The notes below the pieces were generated by a model, which was not told the origin of the DNA, ran no database searches, and was given only the letters and a program-made list of their open reading frames with translations. From NCBI GenBank assembly GCA_016790695.1, contig JAEUOS010000081.1, positions 33,169-97,168 of the forward strand: a stretch of 64,000 nucleotides of DNA, written 5' to 3'. Both the position numbers and the translations under genes were made by a program. Each line of letters opens with the position of its first letter. The stretch's first letter is position 1. Origin of the DNA: Burkholderiales bacterium (GTDB lineage: Bacteria > Pseudomonadota > Gammaproteobacteria > Burkholderiales > JAEUOS01). This document shows, piece after piece, positions 29,414 through 40,846 of this stretch.

Positions 29414-30727
29414 CTACTTGCCGCGCATGGTCGTCGGCAGCCACAACGCGATCTCCGGCCAGATCCAGAGCAGGGCGATCACCGCGAGCATCAGGAACAC
29501 ATAGGGAAACGACCCCGCCACCACCTCGGAGAACTTGGCGCCGCCCGAGATGCCGTGGATGGTGAACAGGTTCAGCCCGACCGGCGGCGTGATCTGCCCC
29601 AGTTCGATCAGGATGGTGATGATCACGCCCAGCCAGATCAGGTCGAAGCCGATCACCTTGATGATCGGGAGCAGCACCGGCAGCGTCATGTAGATCATCG
29701 AGATGCCGTCGACGAAGCAGCCCAGGATGACGTAGAGCACCACCAGCATCAGGAAGAATTCCCACTTCGACAGCCCCAGCGTCAGCACCCATTCGCTCAG
29801 TTCCCGGCTGACGCCGGAGAAGGTCAGCGCCGTCGAGAGGATCTGCGCGCCGATGATGATCATCGCCACCATCGACGTGGTCTTGACCGTCGACATCAGC
29901 GATTCGGTGAACACCTTCCAGGTCAGCGTCCGGTAGCCGGCCGCCAGCGCCAGCGCGCCGGCGGCGCCGATCGCGGAGGCCTCGGTGGGCGTCGCGAAGC
30001 CGGTGTAGATGCTGCCCAGCACACCGGTGAGCAGGAGCACGATCGGCAGCACGTCCCACAGCGGCCGCGTCGAGTGGACCGCCTGCGCCGCCTCCGCGCT
30101 CGCCTGCTTCGGCGCGATCGACGGGTTGCGGATCAGGATGAAGGCGATGTAGAGCATGAACACCGCGCTCATCAGGATGCCGGGCAGGATGCCCGCGATG
30201 AACAGGCGGCCGACCGACTCCTCGACCAGCGCGGCGTAGAGCACCATCACGATCGACGGCGGGATCAGGATGCCCAGCGTGCCGCCGGCCGCCAGCGAGC
30301 CGAACACCGCGCGCGGCTGGTAGCCCTGGCGCAGCAGTTCCGGGATCGCGACCGTGCCGACGCTGGCCGCCGTGGCCACGCTCGATCCGCTGACCGCCGA
30401 GAAGATCGCGCAGCTGACGATGTTGGCGTGCAGCAGGCCGCCGGGCAGTCGCCGCAGCAGCGTCGCGATGCCCGCGTAGAAATACTTGCTGACGCCGCTG
30501 CGCAGGATCACCTCGCCCATCAGCAGGAACATCGGCACGGCGATGAGAATGTAGCTGTTGGCATTGTTCCAGACCACCGAACTCAGTCCCTGCAGGCCGA
30601 CGTACCCCTTGCTCAGGTAGATGATCAGCACGCCGACGATGCCGAGCGCGAACGCGGTCCACTGACCGACGAGCAGGAACAGCGCCAGCGCACCGAACAG
30701 CACGACCATCAGGAGCCCGCTATCCAT
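29414..30727 (-). CDS. dctM: TRAP transporter large permease subunit
   Basis: 437-aa polytopic protein with a typical DctM composition and length, directly downstream of the small subunit. Confidence 0.9.
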   Translation of the reverse strand: MDSGLLMVVLFGALALFLLVGQWTAFALGIVGVLIIYLSKGYVGLQGLSSVVWNNANSYILIAVPMFLLMGEVILRSGVSKYFYAGIATLLRRLPGGLLHANIVSCAIFSAVSGSSVATAASVGTVAIPELLRQGYQPRAVFGSLAAGGTLGILIPPSIVMVLYAALVEESVGRLFIAGILPGILMSAVFMLYIAFILIRNPSIAPKQASAEAAQAVHSTRPLWDVLPIVLLLTGVLGSIYTGFATPTEASAIGAAGALALAAGYRTLTWKVFTESLMSTVKTTSMVAMIIIGAQILSTALTFSGVSRELSEWVLTLGLSKWEFFLMLVVLYVILGCFVDGISMIYMTLPVLLPIIKVIGFDLIWLGVIITILIELGQITPPVGLNLFTIHGISGGAKFSEVVAGSFPYVFLMLAVIALLWIWPEIALWLPTTMRGK

Positions 30728-30736
30728 GCCTGGTGC

Positions 30737-31219
30737 CTACGGAAGCTTGCGCACCCGATCGAGCAGGAAGCTCGCGAGCTGGAGGACGAGCAGACCGCAG
30801 CCGGCGACCGCGAAGGTCATCGGAATGTACTCGGGCGTCGCCAGCACCGAGATCGCGCGGACGTCCTTCTCGAACGCGTAGTGGACGTGCGAGGCGAGGA
30901 AGAAACCCAGCACCAGCGCGAACGCCAGGCTGGTGATCACGATGAACCAGCGCGCTGCCGCGAGCGGCAGGCCGCGCAGACGGTCGTAAAGGAGCTCGAT
31001 GCGGATGAAGCCGCCTTCGCGCACGGTGTAGGCGAGCCCGAAGAACACGATCGCGACGTTCAGGTAGCCTGCCAGCTCGTCGGCAACCATGGTCGAGTGG
31101 TTGAACTTGCGCGCCACCACCTCGACGCAGACCAGCACGAGGATGAGCACGGTCGAGGCGGCGGCGAGAATGCCGCCGGCATCGACCAGCCTCCTGGTCA
31201 CCCGCGCGAACAGCGTCAC
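30737..31219 (-). CDS. dctQ: TRAP transporter small permease subunit
   Basis: 160 aa with four TM segments, located between the DctP and DctM homologues. Confidence 0.85.
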   Translation of the reverse strand: MTLFARVTRRLVDAGGILAAASTVLILVLVCVEVVARKFNHSTMVADELAGYLNVAIVFFGLAYTVREGGFIRIELLYDRLRGLPLAAARWFIVITSLAFALVLGFFLASHVHYAFEKDVRAISVLATPEYIPMTFAVAGCGLLVLQLASFLLDRVRKLP

Positions 31220-31272
31220 GGTGCGGACTCCCGCGTGTGCCGCCGCACGGCGCCGCGGACGCGACGCCGCAT

Positions 31273-32280
31273 TCAGCGTCCCAGCGCGGCGCGAACCTCG
31301 CGGACCAGCGCGGCGCCGTTGGCGCCGTGCTCATCGCCCCAGGCGCTCCAGTACGGGCGCATGCGCTCGACCAGCTTGTCGACCTCCTCCCTGGGCGGGG
31401 TGAAGATGTCGACGCCGTGCTTGGTGCGCAGCGTCTCGAGATCGCGCAGCTCGTCGGCGGCATTCTGCCGCGTCATGCGCGGCCCCCATTCCGCCGCAAC
31501 CGCGTCGAGCGCCGCGCGTACCGGCGGCGCCAGCTTGTTGTACGCGGCCAGGTTGACCAGAACGTAGTCGGGCCCACCGACATGGATGTTCGGCATGTAG
31601 GCCCACTTGACGAATTCGTACCACTTCGCGCCCATGACGTTGAAGCCGGCCGTGATGAAGCCGTCGACCACGCCGCGCTCGACCGCGACCGGCACCTCGG
31701 CCAGGGTCAGCGAGACCGACGCGGCCCCGAGGCGCTTGAGCATCTCGTTCTGCTTGCCGTCGGTGGTGCGGAACTTGCGCCCGGCGAAGTCCTCGAGGCG
31801 CTTGACCTGCGCGCCGCGCCCGTAGAGATTCTGCTGCGGCCATTCGAAATAGAACAGGGTCTTGACGCCGGCCTTCTGGAACTCCGGCTCGGCATACTTC
31901 TGAATGATCGGCCAGATCCTGTTGAGTTCGTCGGTGGTGCGCACCAGGAAGGGCAGATTGGCCACCGACGCCAGCGGCACGGCGCCGGAGATGAAGCCGG
32001 AATAGCCCTCGCCGAGCTGAACCTGGCCCAGGCCGGTGGCGCGCACGACCTCATTGGCCTTGAACGGGAACTCGCCCGCCGGACGCACGGTGATGTTCAG
32101 CTGGCCGTTGGTGCGCTTCCTGACCTCATCGGCAAATTCCTTCAGGCGCAGGGTGATCGGATGCGTCGCCCCGGGAAAGGCAAACATGTCCCATTGCTGG
32201 ACCTGCGCCTGCGCAAGATTGGCGACCGGCAACGCCGCCAGAGAGACCAACAGGCACGCCATGCGTCGCAGTAAGCTCAT
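31273..32280 (-). CDS. dctP: TRAP transporter substrate-binding protein (DctP family)
   Basis: Signal peptide MSLLRRMACLLVSLAALPVANLAQA; 335 aa; first gene of a P-Q-M operon. Confidence 0.88.
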   Translation of the reverse strand: MSLLRRMACLLVSLAALPVANLAQAQVQQWDMFAFPGATHPITLRLKEFADEVRKRTNGQLNITVRPAGEFPFKANEVVRATGLGQVQLGEGYSGFISGAVPLASVANLPFLVRTTDELNRIWPIIQKYAEPEFQKAGVKTLFYFEWPQQNLYGRGAQVKRLEDFAGRKFRTTDGKQNEMLKRLGAASVSLTLAEVPVAVERGVVDGFITAGFNVMGAKWYEFVKWAYMPNIHVGGPDYVLVNLAAYNKLAPPVRAALDAVAAEWGPRMTRQNAADELRDLETLRTKHGVDIFTPPREEVDKLVERMRPYWSAWGDEHGANGAALVREVRAALGR

Positions 32281-32418
32281 CGTCCCGCTCCTCGTTTGTC
32301 ATTCGTCCGGAAGTCCGCCCGTGCCCGACGCCGCGCCGCGGCTGCGCGCGCTGCGCCCTTCTGCACGTCGCTTGAAGATCGCGCGCCGGCTACGTTATCA
32401 TGATTCCGCGATCCGCAG

Positions 32419-32438
32419 CCATTCGACATACAGAATGG
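32419..32438. promoter_or_regulatory. Inverted repeat CCATTC-N8-GAATGG in the divergent dctP / selenoprotein-operon promoter region
   Basis: Read directly in the only AT-rich patch of the 194-bp intergenic region, about 37 nt upstream of the ATG at 32475. Confidence 0.3.
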
Positions 32439-32474
32439 TATTTTCATGCATTGAATCTTGGAAGGAAGCATGCC

Positions 32475-34205
32475 ATGACGTCGAACGCCTATCAAGTGGT
32501 CTGGCCGCGCAGCGCGAAGAGCGTCACCGTCAAGCCGCTCGCCCCGCGCCTGGACGCGCTTCAGGGCAAGACGATCGGCTTCGTCTGGGACTACCTGTTC
32601 CGCGGCGACGAGATCTGGCCCGCGCTCAAGGAGGCACTCGCGGCACGCTTTCCCGGCATGCGCTTCGTCGACTACGAGACCTTCGGCTCCACCCACGGCG
32701 AGGACGAGCACCAGGTTCTCGCGAACATGCCGACGCTCATTCGCGAGCAGCGGATCGACGCGATCGTCTCCGGGATGGGCTGCTGAGGGAGCTGCACGCC
32801 CGCCGTGCTGCGGGCGAGTGCGGTTGCCGAACTGGCCGGCGTGCCGACGGCATCGCTGTGCTGCGAGGGCTTCGTGGGGCAGGCGCGCTCGACGTCCGAG
32901 GGCCTGGGCTTCCCCAACCTGCAGGTGGCCCGCGTCCCGGGCCATGTCGACGTCCAGTCGGCCGAAGAGTTGCGCGCCAACGTGCTGGCGGTGACCGTCG
33001 ACGACGTCATCCGCTGCCTCACCGCGCCCGTCGCCGCGGTCACGCTGGGCCGCGACCCGGGACCGCGCGAGATCGTCTTCTCCGGCAGCTTCGAGGACGT
33101 CAACCGCTTCTTCCTCGAGAACCGCTGGAGCGACGGCCTGCCGATCGTCCCGCCCACCCCCGAGAAGATCGCCGAGTTCCTGGCCTTCACCGACCGCGAC
33201 CCCGATGAAGTCCTGGGCAAGCTGCTGCCGGACAACCGCGAGGCGACCATCTGGAACATCGCCGTGAACGGCGTGATGGCCGGCTGCCGCCCCGAGTACA
33301 TGCCGGTGCTCGTCGCCGCGGTCGAGGCGATGGCCGACCCCGTGTACGGCGTCGAGCACAGCGGCAACACGCCGGGGTCCGAGACCCTGATCGTTCTCAA
33401 CGGACCGATCGCGCGCGAACTCGGCTTCAACTACGAGCAGGGTGCGCTGCGCGACGGCTTCCAGCCGAACACGACCATCGGCCGGTTCTGGCGCCTGTAT
33501 CTGCGCAACGTCGCCGGCTTCCTCCTGCACCACAACGACAAGGGCACGTTCGGGGGCACCTGGCGCGTGGTCCTGGCCGAGAACGAGGAGGTGCTGCGCC
33601 GCATCGGCTGGCCGACCGTCGCCGGCGACATGGGCGCGCCGGAACGGGCCAACGCCGTGACCGTCTCGCGCTTCACCGGCTCCAACGTGGTCGCCTCGGT
33701 GTTCGGCGACACCGCGGAGAAGTGCCTGCCCTACCTCGCCGACGCGCTGGTCTCGCACACGACCTGGGAGGTGATCTTCACGGTCGGCATGTCGACCGGC
33801 ATGTACCGCCCGATGCTGATCCTGAGCCCGGTGATCGCGGAGACCATCGCCAAGTCGGGCATGTCCAAGGCGGACGTGCAGCGCTGGCTGTTCGAGAACG
33901 CGCGGATGCCGGCGCAGCGCTTCGAGCGCTACATGTCGGGCTGGACCAACCTCATTCCCGGCAAGCGCTCGCTGCTCGAGCTGGCGCGGCTCGGCAAGGC
34001 GCCGCGCGCGTTCGGCGCCTCCGGCGACCCGCAGCGCCTGGTGCCGATCGTCGGCAAGCCCGAGGACTTCATGATCGCCGTCAGCGGCGACCCGTTGCGC
34101 TCGAACTGCTATGTCCTGGTCCACAACGGCATCCTCGGCTATCCGACCATGAAGCAGGTGATGCTGCCGGCAGCCTGGCAGGACAAGCTCGCGCGCGCGT
34201 CCTGA
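32475..34205 (+). CDS. Putative selenoprotein: UGSC-type redox domain (Sec at codon 104, TGA 32784-32786) fused to a domain of unknown function of about 385 aa
   Basis: Track ORFs 32400-32786 and 32805-34205 share one frame and are split only by one TGA. Read-through gives GMGC-U-GSCTPAV. SD GGAAGGAAG precedes the ATG at 32475. There is no SD before the GTG at 32805. A SECIS-like hairpin lies just 3' of the TGA. Confidence 0.7.
32790..32825 (+). other. SECIS-like stem-loop immediately downstream of the in-frame UGA
   Basis: 5'-AGCUGCACGCCCGC[CGUGCU]GCGGGC(GA)GUGCGGUU-3'. 14 bp (two G-U pairs), a 2-nt 3' bulge and a 6-nt apical loop. The loop G-U falls at +22/+23 counting the U of UGA as +1. 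Confidence 0.55.
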
Positions 34206-34218
34206 GCGGAGCACCCGG

Positions 34219-35466
34219 TTGCCAATGACCGAAGAACGCGCCTGGATCCTCAATCCGGCGGGTCAGCAGGGCAGCGGCCAGTGGATCGACGACACCCTGG
34301 CCGAGCGGGTGCGCGAGGCCGGCATGACGGCGCGCACGCCGCTGGTCGGGAGGTTTCCGCGCACCCGGGTCGAGGCGGTCCCCGCCGACGATCTCGATGC
34401 CCGCGTCACGGCGCTGTTCCAGGCGCGCGGCTGGACCGACGGACTGCCGGTGGTCGCGCCGACGACGGCGCGCGTCCGCCGCATGCTGCGCTTCACGCGC
34501 CACAGCCCCGATCACAGCCTCGGCGACGTCGATCCCCTGAAGGGACTGGCGACCATCGAAAAGATCGCGGCCAACGCGGTCATGGCGGGGTGCCTGCCGT
34601 CCTACCTGCCGGTGGTCGTCGCGGCGGTCGAGGCGATACTCGACGCCGACTTCAACCTGCGCGGCGTGCAGACCACCGACGAGAACGTCGCGCCGCTGCT
34701 GGTGGTCAACGGTCCGGTGGCCGATGCGCTCGGCATCAACGCCGGGTTCGGCGCGCTCGGTCCCGGCTGGCGCGCCAATGCCAGCATCGGCCGCGCGGTC
34801 CGCCTCGTCATGAACAACCTCGGCGGCGGCTGGCCCGGAACCGTGTCCTTCGCCGGGTTGGCCCAGCCCGGCCGCTACAGCCTGTGCCTCGCGGAGAACA
34901 CGGCCGAGAGTCCGTGGGAGCCGCTGCACGTCGAGGCCGGATTCGCGGCCGCCGCCAGCGTGGTCACGGTGATGCGCGCGGAGTCGGTGATCAACGTCAC
35001 CGGCGGCCTGGCCGAGATCGCCAGCGTGATGGGAACGGCCGCATCGGCATTCGCGGCGATGTGGAGCGGTCGCTCCACGGTGATCGTCTCGCCCGCGCTG
35101 GCTGCCGCACTCGCCGCCGAGGGAATGAGCAAGGCCGCGGTCAAGGCATGGCTGTTCGCGCATGGCCGCTGGCCGTCCGACGGCTGGCGCGCGTCCTGGC
35201 TGTTCAAGACCGTGGGTGGCATCGAGCGCTGGCCGGCGGCAGTCCGCGATGCCGCGGCTGCCGGTGCCGTCCCCGTCGCCGCCTGCGCCGACGATCTCGT
35301 GCTGGTCGTCGCCGGCGGCAACGTTCCGATCGCGCAGCACGCCTACTGCCCCGCCTGGGGTTTTCCGCCGGCGCGCATCAGCCGCGCCATCGACCTGCCC
35401 GAGAATTGGGATGAACTGCTCGCCGAGGAACAGATGACGCACATGCGCATGCTGGGCAACCAATGA
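34219..35466 (+). CDS. Protein of unknown function, paralog of the C-terminal domain of the preceding selenoprotein
   Basis: Shares WTDGLPVVAPT (vs WSDGLPIVPPT), NAVMAGCLPSYLPVVVAAVEA (vs NGVMAGCRPEYMPVLVAAVEA) and LVVNGP (vs IVLNGP). The start is either the TTG at 34219 (GGAG 8 nt upstream) or the ATG at 34225. Confidence 0.8.
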   Translation: MPMTEERAWILNPAGQQGSGQWIDDTLAERVREAGMTARTPLVGRFPRTRVEAVPADDLDARVTALFQARGWTDGLPVVAPTTARVRRMLRFTRHSPDHSLGDVDPLKGLATIEKIAANAVMAGCLPSYLPVVVAAVEAILDADFNLRGVQTTDENVAPLLVVNGPVADALGINAGFGALGPGWRANASIGRAVRLVMNNLGGGWPGTVSFAGLAQPGRYSLCLAENTAESPWEPLHVEAGFAAAASVVTVMRAESVINVTGGLAEIASVMGTAASAFAAMWSGRSTVIVSPALAAALAAEGMSKAAVKAWLFAHGRWPSDGWRASWLFKTVGGIERWPAAVRDAAAAGAVPVAACADDLVLVVAGGNVPIAQHAYCPAWGFPPARISRAIDLPENWDELLAEEQMTHMRMLGNQ

Positions 35467-36389
35467 AGACCGGCTCGTGCGAACTGGCCGTGGTGGGCGG
35501 CGGCATCACCGCGCTGACCGCGGCCTGGCATGCGGCGCTGGACGGCTGCCAGGTGATGCTGCTCGCCGGCGACGATCTGCCGGGCGGCCTGGTGGCCAAT
35601 ATCGGCGCCGTCGACGGCTTTCCCGGCAGCGCACCGGTCGCCGGGATGGCGATGGCGGAGCGGCTCATGCAGGGCATCGTCGCGCACGGCGGCATCATCG
35701 AGCGCAGCGTCGCCGAAGGCATCGACGCCGCCAGTGGCGGTCTGGTGCTGCGCACTGCCACGGCACGCTGGCGCGCCGGCAAGGTCATCGCCGCGACCGG
35801 CGCGCGCCTGGCCGCGCTCGACGTCCCCGGCGCCGCGGCGCTGCGCGACAAGGGGGTGCTGCAATGCGCGTGGTGCAATGCCGGGCTGTATCGCGGTCGC
35901 CGGGTGGTGGTGATCGGCGCGGGGGATGCGGCCTTCCAGGAAACCCTGCACCTGGCCGGCTGCGGCGCGAAGGTCACCATGGTCATCCGCGGCGAGGCGG
36001 TTCGCGCCCGCCGGTCGCTGGTGGAACAGGCCGCCGCCAACGAGGCGATCACGTTCCTCTGGTCGACCGAGGTGACCGAAGTCATCGGCACCGACCATGT
36101 GACCGGCGTCGCGCTGCGCGAACACGGCAGCGGCGAGACCTCGTCGCTCGACTGCGACGCCGTGTTTCCGTACATCGGCCTGGTGCCGGCGGGCGCCTGG
36201 CTCGGCGACCTGGTCGAGACCGGGCCCGCGGGCGCGGTGATCACCGACGCACGCCTGCGCACGCGCACCAGCGGCCTGTTCGCGGCCGGTGCGGTCCGCC
36301 AGGGGTACGGCGGCCGGCTCACCGACGCGGTGGGCGAAGCGACCCTGGCCGCGCGCGAAGCCTGCGCCGCGCTGGCCGGCAACCCGTAG
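35463..36389 (+). CDS. Thioredoxin-reductase-family FAD/NAD(P)H flavoprotein with CAWC redox motif
   Basis: ATGA overlap with the upstream gene. FAD motif VVGGGITALTAA, redox centre QCAWCNAGLYRGRRVVVIGAGDAAFQE (TrxB has CATCDG...GGGNSA), and C-terminal GLFAAGAVR. Confidence 0.85.
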   Translation: MKTGSCELAVVGGGITALTAAWHAALDGCQVMLLAGDDLPGGLVANIGAVDGFPGSAPVAGMAMAERLMQGIVAHGGIIERSVAEGIDAASGGLVLRTATARWRAGKVIAATGARLAALDVPGAAALRDKGVLQCAWCNAGLYRGRRVVVIGAGDAAFQETLHLAGCGAKVTMVIRGEAVRARRSLVEQAAANEAITFLWSTEVTEVIGTDHVTGVALREHGSGETSSLDCDAVFPYIGLVPAGAWLGDLVETGPAGAVITDARLRTRTSGLFAAGAVRQGYGGRLTDAVGEATLAAREACAALAGNP

Positions 36390-36415
36390 CACACACAACG
36401 ACGAAGGGGATCAGC

Positions 36416-37171
36416 ATGCGCGACTATCTTGCCTGGCGAATGGCCTTTGGCGTGACCACGCCGTCGACCAACACCGTGGTGCAGCCCGAGTACGACGACA
36501 TGCGCCCGCCGGGCGTGACCAATCACCTCGGCCGCATGGCGATACCGGACATTCCGATCGCCAACAACGCCGACTTCGATCGCTCCATCGAGCTGATCGA
36601 CGCCGCGCTCGAGGGCGCGGTGGCGCGCGTGATGGACGCCAAGCCGAACGCCTTCATCCTCGGCATCTCCGCACTGGCCGTCTGGGGCGGCACGCCGGCC
36701 TGGGGGGACGAGCTCAAGGCGCGCATCCGCAAGGTCGCCGGCTGGGAGATTCCGGTGGCGCTGGCCACCGACGCGGTCGTCGCCGGGCTGCGCGCACACG
36801 GCGTCAAGCGCCGCATCGCCATCATGGAGCCGTACTATCCGTCGATCGAAAAGCGCATGGAGGGCGTGTTCGGGCCGTTCGGCTACGAGATCGTGCGCTA
36901 CAACCACATGCGGGGCAAGAGTCCGGCCTCGTACTCGATCCTGACCGCGCGCGACATGATCGACGCGATGCGGGCGATCGACGGGCCGGACATCGAGGCG
37001 ATCGTCCAGTTCGGCGCCAACCTGCCGATGGCGCGCCTGGCCGACGAGGCCGAGCGCTGGCTCGACAAGCCGGTGATCAGCATCAACGTCGCCACCTACT
37101 GGCACGCGCTGCGCATGAACGGCATCGCCGACAAGCGCTACGGGTTCACGCAGCTCATGTCGCGCTTCTAG
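36416..37171 (+). CDS. Asp/Glu/hydantoin racemase-superfamily protein (maleate isomerase / arylmalonate decarboxylase-like), cysteine-free
   Basis: FGVTTPSTNTVVQPEYDDM...IVQFGANLPMARL...PVISINVATYWHALR pattern. SD GAAGGGGA lies before the ATG. The 251-aa translation contains no Cys. Confidence 0.75.
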   Translation: MRDYLAWRMAFGVTTPSTNTVVQPEYDDMRPPGVTNHLGRMAIPDIPIANNADFDRSIELIDAALEGAVARVMDAKPNAFILGISALAVWGGTPAWGDELKARIRKVAGWEIPVALATDAVVAGLRAHGVKRRIAIMEPYYPSIEKRMEGVFGPFGYEIVRYNHMRGKSPASYSILTARDMIDAMRAIDGPDIEAIVQFGANLPMARLADEAERWLDKPVISINVATYWHALRMNGIADKRYGFTQLMSRF

Positions 37172-37234: not shown

Positions 37235-37702
<468 letters not shown>

Positions 37703-37727
37703 GGCGTGCTCTGGAATCCGTAGGTGG

Positions 37728-38528
37728 TCAGCCGGTGATTTTCTGGACCGCGCGGCGGGTCATCACGCCGGCCAGGTGGGCCCGATAGTCGGCGCCCGCG
37801 TGCAGGTCGGCGATGCAGGTGCCCTCGTCGACCGCCAGACCATCGAGCGCAGCGGCGCTGAACGACTTGGCCAGCGCGGTCTCGGCGGCCTTCCAGCGGA
37901 AGACCCCGGATGCGCCGGCGCCGGTGATCGCGACGCGCACCCCGGCACCGGTGTCGGCGACGAAGGCCCCGGCCATCGCGTAGCCGGAGGCCGGATGGTG
38001 GAACTTGCAGTACGCCGCGCGCTTCGGGCAGGGGAAGCGGATCGCCTTGATGATCTCGCCGTCCTCCAGCGCGGTCGAGAACATGCCCTGGAAGTAGTCG
38101 TCGGCCGCGATCTCGCGGCGCGAGGTGATCACCGTCGCATTCAGGCCGAGCACCGCCGACGGATAGTCGGCCGCCGGGTCGTTGTTCGCGACCGAGCCGC
38201 CGAGGGTGCCGCGGTTGCGCACCTGCTGGTCGCCGATCTCGAGGGCCAGCGCGGCGAGCGCGGGGATTGCCGCCCGCACCTCGGCCGAGGCGGCGACCTC
38301 GGCATGGCGGGTCATCGCGCCGATGGTGACCGTCGCGCCGGACACCGTGATGCCGCGGAGCTCCGCGATGCGGCCGATGTCGATCACGTGCGACGGCTGC
38401 GCCAGCCGCGCCTTGAGCGTCGGAATGAAGGTCTGCCCGCCGGCGAGCAGTTTCGCTTCCGGGTTCTTGGCCAGCAGCGCGCCGGCTTCGGCGACGCTGC
38501 CGGCGCGCAGGTATTCGAATGCGTACAT
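37728..38528 (-). CDS. Molybdo-hydroxylase medium subunit, FAD-binding (CoxM-like)
   Basis: MYAFEYLRAGSVAEA...LLAGGQTFIPTLK...RNRGTLGGSVANNDPAADYP; 266 aa. Confidence 0.9.
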   Translation of the reverse strand: MYAFEYLRAGSVAEAGALLAKNPEAKLLAGGQTFIPTLKARLAQPSHVIDIGRIAELRGITVSGATVTIGAMTRHAEVAASAEVRAAIPALAALALEIGDQQVRNRGTLGGSVANNDPAADYPSAVLGLNATVITSRREIAADDYFQGMFSTALEDGEIIKAIRFPCPKRAAYCKFHHPASGYAMAGAFVADTGAGVRVAITGAGASGVFRWKAAETALAKSFSAAALDGLAVDEGTCIADLHAGADYRAHLAGVMTRRAVQKITG

Positions 38529-38548
38529 CGTCTCTCCTTGTCGAACGG

Positions 38549-40846
38549 TCAGGCCGCCTTGCGCGCGGCATCGTTGAGGGTGCGCCAGAGGACGCCGGGC
38601 GTGACCGGCATCTGCAGGTCGGCGACGCCGGCCGGGCGCACCGCGTCCATCAGCGCATTCATCAGGGCCGGCAGCGAGCCCGAGCAGCCGGATTCGCCGA
38701 CGCCCTTGGCGCCCATCAGGTTGGTCGCGGTCGGCACCGGGTGGGATTCGCGCGTGAAGCTGCCCTTGAGCCAGCCGGCGCGCGGCATCGGATAGTCCAT
38801 GAAGCTCGCGGTGAGGAACTGGCCGGATTCGCGGTCGTACACCGCGTGCTCGCCGAACACCTGCCCGACGCCCTGCACCACCCCGCCGTGCACCTGGCCT
38901 TCGACGAGCACCGGCTGCAGCACGTTGCCCAGGTCGTCGACCGCGGTGTAGCGCACGACCTCGGCCACGCCGGTCTCCGGATCGATCTCCACTTCCGCGA
39001 CATGGCAGCCGTTCGGGTAGGTCGCCGGCGACGAGGTCTCGGCGTTGCAGTCGAGCGGATGGTTGCCGTCGGCGTCGGGCGGCAGCGCACGCGCGAGTTC
39101 GGTCAGCGTGATCGACCGCCCGCCGCCGCTGAAGGTGCCGGCCGCATAGGTCACCGCCTCCGTGCCGAGCCGGGCCGCCGCCAGCGGCGTCGCCTTCTCG
39201 ATCAGCGCCAGCGCCAGCGCCTTGAACGCGCTGCCCTGCCCCGCGGCGGTCCGCGACCCGCCGGTGCCGTTGCCGACCAGGCGGTCGTAGGCCGGGTCGC
39301 TCGCGCGGTACTGCACCGTCGCCGCGGGAACGCCGAGCGTCGCGGCGAACACGCCGACGAACGTGGTCTCGTGGCCCTGTCCGGAGCCGCCCGCCATGCA
39401 ATGGATGGTGATCACGCCGTCGCTGCCGACCCGCGCGGCGGTCTGGTCCTTGTTGAACACCCCGGCCGCGGCGGCCTCGAGATAGCTGGCGAAGCCGATG
39501 CCGCGCAGCCGGCCGCGCGCGGCGCTCTGCGCGCGCCGCCCGGAAAAGCCGGCATGATCGGCGGCCGCGAGCGCATGGGCGAACACTGCCGGGAAGTCGC
39601 CGCTGTCGTAGATCGGGCCGGTGGCGGTCTTGTAGGGCATCTGCGCGGGCGCGATGAAATTGCGCTGGCGCAGCGCGACCGGGTCGAAGCCGTGCTCGTG
39701 CGCGGCCTGGTCGACCAGGCGTTCGATCGCGTAGGCGATGTCGGGCCGGCCGGCGCCGCGATAGGCCGAGATCGGCGTGGTGTTGGTGTAGGCCAGCACG
39801 GATCGCACGTGGACCGCCGGCACCTTGTAGACCCCGTGGGAGGTGATCGAGATGTTCTGCGTGCCGATGAACGCGCCGAACGGCCCGGCGTACGCGCCGA
39901 GGTCGATGGTGTCGCTCCAGCGGAAGGCGAGGAAGTTGCCCGCTTCGTCCAGCGCGACCTCGCCGGTCAGCGAGAGCGCCCGGCCGTGGTAGTCGGACAG
40001 GAACGTGTCGGCGCGCGACCCGACCCACTTCACCGGCCGGCCCAGTTCCTTGGCGGCAAGCATCGCCAGGAAGTACTCCGGGTACGGTGTGCCGCGGATG
40101 CCGAAGCTGCCGCCGACATCCTCGACGATCAGGTCGACGCTCTTCGCCGACAGGCCGGTGATCTGCTCGATGTGCGAGCGCGCGCCGATCAGGCCCTGGG
40201 ACGGCGCGTGCAGCGTGAAGCGCCCGGCGGCGGCATCGTACGAGGCGAGGCAGGCGCGCGGCTCCATCGGGTTGCAGACCAGGCGCTGGCTGTCGACCGT
40301 CAGCTTCGTGACGTGGCGCGCGCGCGCGAACGCGGCATCGGTGGCGGCGGCGTCGCCGTGCTCGTGCACGAAGGCGACGTTGCCCTCGATCTCGTCGTGC
40401 ACGCGCGGCGCACCCGGCGCGACGGCGTCGGCGAAGGTCACCACCGACGTCAGTTCCTCGTAGTCGACCGCGATCAGTTCGACCGCGTCCTGCGCGGCGA
40501 GCGTCGAGTCCGCGACCACGAAGGCCACCGCCTGGCCGACATGGGCGACGTGGTCCCGAGCCAGCACCGGGTAGAACGGCTTCTTCATCGGCTGGCCGCT
40601 GCGGTCCTTGGTGGCGATGCCGCCGGCGATGCTCTTGTAGCCGGCGCGCTCGACATCCGCGCACGTCAGCACGGCCTTGACGCCGGGCGCGGCCAGCGCC
40701 GCGGCGGTGTCGATGGCGCGGATGCGCGCGGCCGCGTGGGGCGACCGCAGCACGGCGGCATACAACTGCCCGGGCAGGTTCCAGTCGGCGGCATAGCGGC
40801 CCTGGCCCTGGATCAGGCGCAGGTCTTCACGGCGTGAGGGTTGCAT
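38549..40846 (-). CDS. Molybdo-hydroxylase large subunit (xanthine dehydrogenase family, CoxL form-II-like)
   Basis: REDLRLIQGQGRYAAD N-terminus; active-site loop AYRGAGR (not the AYxCSFR of true CO dehydrogenase); 765 aa. Confidence 0.9.
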   Translation of the reverse strand: MQPSRREDLRLIQGQGRYAADWNLPGQLYAAVLRSPHAAARIRAIDTAAALAAPGVKAVLTCADVERAGYKSIAGGIATKDRSGQPMKKPFYPVLARDHVAHVGQAVAFVVADSTLAAQDAVELIAVDYEELTSVVTFADAVAPGAPRVHDEIEGNVAFVHEHGDAAATDAAFARARHVTKLTVDSQRLVCNPMEPRACLASYDAAAGRFTLHAPSQGLIGARSHIEQITGLSAKSVDLIVEDVGGSFGIRGTPYPEYFLAMLAAKELGRPVKWVGSRADTFLSDYHGRALSLTGEVALDEAGNFLAFRWSDTIDLGAYAGPFGAFIGTQNISITSHGVYKVPAVHVRSVLAYTNTTPISAYRGAGRPDIAYAIERLVDQAAHEHGFDPVALRQRNFIAPAQMPYKTATGPIYDSGDFPAVFAHALAAADHAGFSGRRAQSAARGRLRGIGFASYLEAAAAGVFNKDQTAARVGSDGVITIHCMAGGSGQGHETTFVGVFAATLGVPAATVQYRASDPAYDRLVGNGTGGSRTAAGQGSAFKALALALIEKATPLAAARLGTEAVTYAAGTFSGGGRSITLTELARALPPDADGNHPLDCNAETSSPATYPNGCHVAEVEIDPETGVAEVVRYTAVDDLGNVLQPVLVEGQVHGGVVQGVGQVFGEHAVYDRESGQFLTASFMDYPMPRAGWLKGSFTRESHPVPTATNLMGAKGVGESGCSGSLPALMNALMDAVRPAGVADLQMPVTPGVLWRTLNDAARKAA

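Follow-up and report, generated by a model that had tools for sequence, protein, structure and literature searches.

What does a bacterial gene encode when its reading frame runs through an in-frame TGA codon, and what would its product do together with the proteins encoded beside it? This question is raised by a locus at positions 29,414 to 37,171 of a 64,000-nucleotide (nt) stretch, hereafter the window, of contig JAEUOS010000081.1 from a Burkholderiales bacterium. On the + strand the locus carries the TGA-containing gene for a selenocysteine (Sec) protein, in which a domain of the UGSC family is fused to a C-terminal domain that we call X, followed by genes for a paralog of X (X'), a thioredoxin reductase (TrxR)-like flavoprotein and an Amdase-like protein. 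A tripartite ATP-independent periplasmic (TRAP) importer is encoded divergently. We compared the window with 83 related loci fetched from species-representative genomes and metagenome assemblies. Results of these comparisons, given below, indicate that the module is probably a new selenium-dependent reductase.

Comparative evidence for a selenocysteine codon

The codon at the position of the window TGA (32784-32786) is TGA in 76 of the 81 homologous UGSC sites of the fetched loci, which represent many phyla, and TGC was found there in three actinobacterial loci only. Protein conservation runs on past the TGA in every lineage, and orthologues read through it in ~40 loci. Natural full-length homologues with cysteine (Cys) in place of Sec (P0325, P0333, P0354 and others) carry the motif GVGA-C-GSCTPAV. 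A hairpin of the selenocysteine insertion sequence (SECIS) type begins 11 nt past the UGA, with the loop CGUGYU across loci. The stem of 6 bp shows pairing in 99% of the alignment cells and includes one covarying pair (G-C/A-U). At the third positions of the five hairpin codons (P-A-V-L-R) the entropy is 0-0.17 bit in 40 sequences, vs. ~1-1.8 bit for the flanking, equally conserved codons of the same sequences. With its upper stem-loop placed 11 nt from the UGA and a GU in the loop, the hairpin has the geometry of bacterial SECIS elements such as the one of E. coli fdhF. Since the TGA is conserved, natural Cys homologues exist and the hairpin is frozen at synonymous sites, we conclude from the alignments that this TGA is a genuine Sec codon, in agreement with the initial annotation of the locus; we also infer that the host is competent for Sec incorporation.

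That the TGA is instead an ordinary stop, leaving a peptide of 103 aa and a second, independent protein of 466 aa started from GTG 32805 with no selenoprotein made, is hardly credible. Most metagenome gene calls do split window-type genes in exactly this manner, into products of 102-106 aa and 465-467 aa. The window also contains no tRNA-Sec gene (no search specific to sel genes was made), and an Rfam scan of 32250-33000 gave no match to a SECIS family. Yet the peptide GSCTPA, encoded by the six codons that separate the TGA from the GTG, is conserved in every lineage, the natural full-length homologues and the actinobacterial loci have Cys at the position of the TGA, the hairpin is invariant at synonymous sites, and the Prokaryotic Genome Annotation Pipeline (PGAP) annotates a read-through product of 582 aa in Vineibacter terrae.

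The N-terminal module belongs to the UGSC family

Membership of the N-terminal module in the UGSC family is established by its profile match: residues 7-183 align with positions 1-171 of the 172 of PF24696 at 104.4 bits (cutoff 25). The equivalog cutoff of NF041046, a model of a stand-alone protein of ~147 aa, was missed (52.7 vs. 125 bits), and because the score is under this cutoff, the window protein is regarded as the long fusion form. Orthologues carry the PGAP name 'UGSC family (seleno)protein'. The family was first seen in Hyphomonas neptunium and marine metagenomes (PMC1976440). In the Global Ocean Sampling (GOS) metagenome data it was among the most abundant selenoprotein families, with 255 Sec vs. 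21 Cys sequences, and a 'UGSC/Unknown_1' fusion was mentioned in 2008 (PMC2398784); that Unknown_1 is X could not be confirmed. As published (Zhang and Gladyshev, 2007, 2008), UGSC is an orphan family with a fold guessed as thioredoxin (Trx), and a 2026 review counts it among the selenoproteins whose functions 'remain largely uncharacterized' (PMC13188914). The protein had been put forward as an uncharacterised selenoprotein. This is right as to its function, but the protein itself is not unknown, as it belongs to a published and PGAP-named family with a fusion mentioned in 2008.

P0325, a natural Cys homologue with 58% identity to the window Sec protein, was modelled with AlphaFold2 (predicted local distance difference test, pLDDT, 84; predicted template modelling score, pTM, 0.87). 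The N-terminal domain of this fusion model is of alpha/beta type and gave generic flavodoxin-like matches in a Foldseek search against the PDB. The model thus indicates a flavodoxin-like alpha/beta fold for the UGSC domain, against the earlier Trx-fold guess. By position, the U/C-x-x-C motif follows right after strand 97-103 and leads into helix 108-121; such a turn between strand and helix is the classic place of redox-active dyads.

A profile of 20 UGSC domains was further compared with real PrdB sequences from databases. The hhalign match is short and weak (probability 64%, E 6e-5, 59 columns), and it places Sec on Sec and the resolving Cys on Cys and also matches an E..G(I/V)PT segment. 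It is suggestive only of a relationship between the UGSC Sec loop and PrdB. With this alignment the analogy in outline to the glycine and D-proline reductase (Grd/Prd) systems, drawn at first sight of the locus, appears reasonable and slightly stronger than had been thought. PF07355 (GRDB) matched neither the window protein nor any of the 20 UGSC domains, even with E values up to 10 allowed, and a sequence search with PrdB found no PDB entry. Four public PrdB entries (P0391, P0398, P0402, P0437) show W or R at the Sec position (TAG-W-GTCHR), presumably because a TGA was read under a different genetic code or because the site is recoded.

X and its paralog form a large family with a putative active site

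The C-terminal 390 aa of the fusion and X' share 36% identity over 276 aa (E 5e-36), which bears out the paralogy claimed at the outset. More than 5000 homologues of X' were found, all named 'hypothetical', and the X family has 4784 representatives at 50% identity clustering. Pfam and NCBIfam scans of X and X' gave no family match, and a Pfam scan of 40 diverse X members returned UGSC remnants only. The post-Sec half of UGSC is present in 17 of these 40 proteins, which are fusions that gene callers truncated at the TGA. No relative was detected when PDB sequences were searched with an X profile. The AlphaFold2 model of the window X' (pLDDT 81, pTM 0.85) had no fold match in a Foldseek search against the PDB (best E 1.3). 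For the P0325 fusion model, Foldseek listed class I fumarate hydratase at E 9e-4 with a negligible TM-score of 0.18, a match that was gone for the X'-only model.

Members that are only 30% identical share the invariant motifs W-x-DGLP-x3-PT, NAVMAGC, NGP, RAN..GR and AENE. The invariant residues comprise the Cys of NAVMAGC, the Asp of W-x-DGLP, the Asn and Arg of RAN..GR and the Glu of AENE, the pattern one would expect if an active site combined a Cys with residues that bind carboxylates. It is a realistic possibility that X represents a catalytic scaffold of an entirely new kind. The N-terminal motif of X', (W/L)ILNPAGQ (window 34225-34260), is similar to that of the first strand in UGSC domains (xxLVNPVGE), which suggests that X' derived from a UGSC-X gene through loss of the Sec domain.

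UGSC and X are coupled across phyla

Gene order was assessed for 144 X genes in the 83 loci. UGSC lies directly upstream of or is fused to 69 of them and lies directly downstream of 11, while 36 stand beside a UGSC-X gene as in the window; the remainder are at contig edges (9) or have no detected UGSC (19). Thus, for 86% of the assessable X genes UGSC is fused, adjacent or one gene away, in three gene orders, and the coupling of X and UGSC appears near-obligate. The order UGSC-X followed by X' recurs in ~40 of the fetched loci from several phyla, and this makes the arrangement far beyond chance. Of 82 loci, 25 have a TrxR-like flavoprotein gene directly 3' of an X gene. The trio of UGSC-X, X' and flavoprotein occurs in Burkholderiales and many Alphaproteobacteria, and UGSC-X with X' but without the flavoprotein in Methylomirabilota/Rokubacteria, Nitrospinota, Limnocylindria and Dormiibacterota.

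Other neighbours are more variable. Nearby transporters are of the TRAP type in ~13 loci, of the Liv-type ATP-binding cassette (ABC) type in ~12 and represented by Bug/TctC binding proteins in ~11, and an Amdase-like gene is found in ~8 of the 83 loci. Hydantoinase/oxoprolinase genes (HyuA/B) are nearby in 8-9 loci, with HyuB directly after X' in two, and genes for coenzyme A (CoA)-transferases, amidohydrolases and acyl-CoA ligases recur in many. A fixed operon of five genes plus TRAP as the conserved unit was rejected on the counts for the Amdase-like and TRAP genes. The co-occurrence suggested initially for the five genes and the TRAP genes therefore holds for the UGSC-X/X'/TrxR-like module, but not for the TRAP and Amdase-like genes, which are lineage-specific. 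Judged by gene order, the conserved unit is UGSC with X, joined in part of the loci by X' and the TrxR-like gene, with transporter and Amdase-like protein as lineage-specific accessories.

Several individual loci deserve mention. In loci of the Methylomirabilota type (L020 from 11227; L027; L030 and L033, +2.8 kb), HyuB occupies the slot after X' that the TrxR-like gene holds in proteobacteria; in Vineibacter (L001) and Reyranella (L003), too, HyuA/HyuB are neighbours of the module. Locus L020, a contig assigned to the metagenome-assembled genome (MAG) of an ammonia-oxidising archaeon, Nitrosotalea sp., carries the module with its TGA at 60-68% identity to bacterial proteins and is most likely a misbinned bacterial contig. 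A Chloroflexi MAG (L059, 5859-20959) holds five UGSC+X pairs in ~15 kb, and arrays were also seen in L044, L068 and L081. Each pair of such arrays has its own in-frame TGA, and both orders, UGSC-X and X-UGSC, occur. The arrays suggest a family that diversified for many substrates.

The flavoprotein is TrxR-like and distinct from housekeeping TrxB

Residues 7-299 of the flavoprotein align end to end with residues 10-306 of the thioredoxin reductase 2q7v, with the CAWC motif opposite CATC. It scored 196.5 bits against TIGR01292 (equivalog cutoff 343) and 76.8 bits against NF007614 (cutoff 644), and its second-best family, AhpF, was matched with 147 bits, also under the equivalog cutoff. Housekeeping TrxB as its identity was rejected on the TIGR01292 score (196 bits vs. 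the cutoff of 343). The earlier assignment to TrxR-like flavoproteins was confirmed at the level of the family (Pyr_redox_2), and the protein is not the housekeeping TrxB equivalog. No thioredoxin-fold gene was detected among the cluster proteins with Pfam and NCBIfam.

A proposed redox relay and its alternatives

We propose a three-protein redox relay, from NAD(P)H to the flavoprotein, on to the U-x-x-C motif and finally to an X/X' reductase that acts on an imported carboxylate; to our judgement this reading is evenly balanced between being right and wrong. The flavoprotein would take electrons from NAD(P)H via flavin adenine dinucleotide (FAD) and its CAWC dithiol, which in turn would reduce the selenenylsulfide of the U-G-S-C motif. 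The UGSC domain would stand in as a built-in thioredoxin, and the lack of a thioredoxin gene in the cluster fits this role. The selenol/thiol pair would then act on a substrate held by the fused X domain and X', probably as a heteromer. This substrate would be an imported small carboxylate or amino-acid-type compound, taken up by TRAP here and by Liv-type ABC or Bug/TctC systems elsewhere. The most likely reaction would be reductive bond cleavage of the PrdB type on a new scaffold that works without a pyruvoyl group, in which Sec would attack the substrate, the resolving Cys would form the Se-S bond and the flavoprotein would recycle it. Besides the missing thioredoxin gene, the relay is supported by the evidence for Sec, the linkage of UGSC and X through fusion and gene order, the TrxR-like gene with its CxxC motif behind an X gene in 25 of 82 loci, the placement of U-x-x-C between strand and helix, the PrdB alignment, the carboxylate or amino-acid transporters near many loci and the invariant residues of X. 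How electrons flow in this scheme, that X and X' pair as a heteromer, that X is catalytic and which class the substrate belongs to are our inferences.

As to the substrate, the best solved relatives of the window DctP are 4n4u (137 bits) and 2pfy/2pfz, which we take to be the pyroglutamate-bound structures of two DctP homologues from B. pertussis. Crystallisation of B. pertussis DctP homologues with pyroglutamate is described in PMC5812351. Together with the variable carboxylate or amino-acid transporters near many loci and the recurrent oxoprolinase-type genes, these relatives give a weak hint of a cyclic amino-acid or lactam-type carboxylate. In its boldest form the proposal would make X/X' a new enzyme fold that, with UGSC, constitutes a pyruvoyl-independent, PrdB-like Sec reductase opening an imported cyclic amino-acid or lactam-type carboxylate in aerobic soil and water bacteria; we consider this form doubtful.

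A number of results weigh against the relay and its PrdB-like chemistry. X has no recognisable catalytic fold by Pfam, PDB or Foldseek searches, so that calling it an enzyme relies on residue conservation. About two thirds of the loci lack an adjacent flavoprotein gene. Only 3 of 16 PrdB sequences match PF24696, at E ~0.006. The pyruvoyl-type partner PF09338 was found neither among the cluster proteins nor in the 40 X members, and with PF07355 likewise lacking, membership in the Grd/Prd systems is not established. A few X' homologues (e.g. P0127, P0134) carry signal peptides resembling those of twin-arginine translocation (TAT) substrates or lipoproteins, such as MVRAKGLTRREMLQAAGALGAGALLSGCAAK; part of the X' family may thus be exported, which is a poor fit with an NAD(P)H-driven cytoplasmic role. 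To these are added the missing tRNA-Sec gene in the window and the papers searched, in which no biochemical data on any component of the module were found.

Part of this evidence would also suit other functions. The module could be an antioxidant or repair system, in which the flavoprotein keeps the UGSC selenol reduced against peroxides, disulfides or electrophiles, X/X' provide scaffold or specificity and the transporters are incidental. Most bacterial UxxC selenoproteins are indeed classed as thiol oxidoreductase-like (PMC2398784, PMC13188914), AhpF (147 bits) is the second-best family of the flavoprotein, the host lineages look aerobic and the type of transporter varies between loci. This function is nevertheless unlikely, as Pfam and NCBIfam revealed no peroxiredoxin, AhpC, AhpD or GPx domain in the cluster proteins, and the surroundings of many loci are catabolic (hydantoinase/oxoprolinase, CoA-transferases, amidohydrolases, acyl-CoA ligases) and include solute transporters. 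The five UGSC-X pairs within 15 kb of L059, moreover, look like substrate diversification and not like housekeeping defence. More improbable still is that X/X' are a non-redox enzyme (isomerase, hydratase or lyase) or a binding protein, with UGSC as a redox-sensing cap that the flavoprotein resets. The invariant Cys and acid/base residues of X, as in Cys-dependent isomerases, would agree with such a function, and so would the 19 of 144 X genes without UGSC detected nearby, the export signals on some X', the majority of loci without a dedicated reductase and the best, weak Foldseek match of the fusion model to fumarate hydratase. Against this, 76 of 81 sites retain Sec, a high price for a simple switch and a pattern usual for catalytic residues; 86% of the assessable X genes have UGSC fused to them or adjacent, and the fumarate hydratase match has a negligible TM-score and vanishes for X' modelled on its own.

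Organization and transcription of the locus

Features of the locus are collected in Table 1. The coordinates, gaps and overlaps given in the initial annotation were all reproduced from the table of open reading frames (ORFs) and the read-through translation.

Table 1. Coordinates of the UGSC-X locus in the window and the basis of each assignment.
Feature	Coordinates	Strand	Basis
dctM, TRAP large permease DctM, 437 aa	29414..30727	-	PF06808 E 1.5e-91; TIGR00786 346 bits, > cutoff
dctQ, TRAP small permease DctQ, 160 aa	30737..31219	-	PF04290 E 6e-23
dctP, TRAP solute-binding protein DctP, 335 aa	31273..32280	-	PF03480 E 3e-43
Divergent control region, 194 nt	32281..32474	.	Promoter and hairpin scan
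UGSC-X selenoprotein gene, 576 codons, ATG 32475, stop ends 34205	32475..34205	+	Read-through translation, PF24696
UGSC domain, ~aa 7-183 (X domain, ~aa 200-576)	~32493-33023	+	
UGA selenocysteine codon, GMGC-U-GSC-T	32784..32786	+	Codon alignment across loci
SECIS-type hairpin GCCCGC-CGUGCU-GCGGGC, 18 nt	32798..32815	+	Alignment, pair counts, synonymous-site entropy
X' paralog, 413-415 aa, without UGSC core	34219..35466	+	Homology to the C-domain of the fusion
Low-Mr thioredoxin-reductase-like flavoprotein, 308 aa, CAWC motif	35463..36389	+	Pyr_redox_2, TIGR01292 match
Amdase/maleate-isomerase-like protein, 251 aa, zero Cys	36416..37171	+	PF17645 40.9 bits

The four + strand genes are closely packed. 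The annotated TTG start of X' leaves a 13-nt gap after the fusion gene. A database protein that is 100% identical (P0001, 413 aa) implies ATG 34225 and a gap of 19 nt, and this ATG is the likely true start. X' and the flavoprotein gene overlap in ATGA at 35463-35466, and 26 nt separate the flavoprotein gene from the ATG of the Amdase-like gene. A hairpin/terminator scan found no terminator-like site between the four genes, and a promoter scan placed a sigma-70-like promoter, TTGAAG-18-TATCAT, at 32372-32401 on the + strand. A single transcript for the four genes is plausible on these grounds.

Inside the divergent control region lies a palindrome, CCATTCgacatacaGAATGG (ATTCGA..TCGAAT), at 32419-32438. 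In four related Burkholderiales loci (L004-L007) both this palindrome and GTTATCATGATTC, which includes the -10-like TATCAT, are kept. The palindrome looks like an operator or a hairpin of the 5' untranslated region. A short U-rich run lies 3' of it, and no regulator gene adjoins.

The TRAP importer was correctly described as complete, with matches to PF03480, PF04290 and PF06808 in three consecutive genes. The Amdase-like protein is EutA-like and exceeds the PF17645 cutoff of 25.9 bits, and it matches the PDB entries 3ixl and 2xed at E ~1e-7. In the alignment with maleate isomerase 2xed, Ser and Gly occupy the stretches that presumably hold its two catalytic Cys. A classical two-Cys thiol racemase was ruled out for this gene, since the product contains no Cys at all. 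The 'racemase-fold' label applied at first is thus right for the Asp/Glu-racemase superfamily, but not for a classical Cys racemase, and the chemistry of the protein, if any, must differ from that of classical racemases and isomerases because Cys is lacking.

An operon for a molybdenum hydroxylase of the CoxS/CoxM/CoxL type (37235-40846, - strand) converges on the end of the module. This placement recurs in the close Burkholderiales relatives L004, L005 and L036, and CoxL-like genes lie within 6 kb in ~8 loci. The proximity may be due to chance or to a shared pathway.

Implications

The window locus and its 83 relatives give the orphan UGSC family a concrete and testable context. In the papers searched we found no description of X as a very large family lacking both a domain model and a fold match in the PDB, of the near-obligate X-UGSC coupling and the X/X' duplication, or of the dedicated TrxR-like reductase and the flavodoxin-like UGSC model. 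Natural Cys versions are easy to express, and Vineibacter terrae (L001) is an example of a cultivable carrier; the module is present in a Reyranella genome assembly (L003) as well. Knowledge of the reaction would explain what two large orphan families do, and it could reveal selenium-dependent reductive chemistry in aerobic bacteria. If X/X' do form a new enzyme fold with PrdB-like activity, Stickland-type selenium chemistry would occur on a new scaffold outside the anaerobic Firmicutes, and a function would be found for an orphan selenoprotein family that ranks among the most abundant in aquatic metagenomes.

Comparison with known systems

The module has in common with PrdA/PrdB and GrdB/GrdE/GrdA of anaerobic Firmicutes a U-x-x-C motif that ends a Rossmann-like strand, a TrxR-type reductase encoded alongside and a likely imported substrate of amino-acid or carboxylate type. 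It differs from them in the absence of a pyruvoyl proprotein, a thioredoxin gene, GrdA, GrdC and GrdD, and its partner X belongs to an unrelated family without PDB fold match. The hosts are different as well: GC-rich proteobacteria, Methylomirabilota, Chloroflexota and others carry the module, whereas the Prd and Grd systems are those of anaerobic Firmicutes. With low-Mr TrxR and the C-terminal module of AhpF, the flavoprotein shares the two-domain FAD/NAD(P)H layout and a CxxC in the TrxR position; it is syntenic with UGSC-X/X' instead of trxA or ahpC, and its presumed partner is the UGSC domain. The window protein has the U-G-S-C motif and the SECIS-type hairpin in common with the UGSC family. 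This family was published without a partner or a structure, whereas here it is accompanied by the partner X, a paralog, a dedicated reductase and a flavodoxin-like model.

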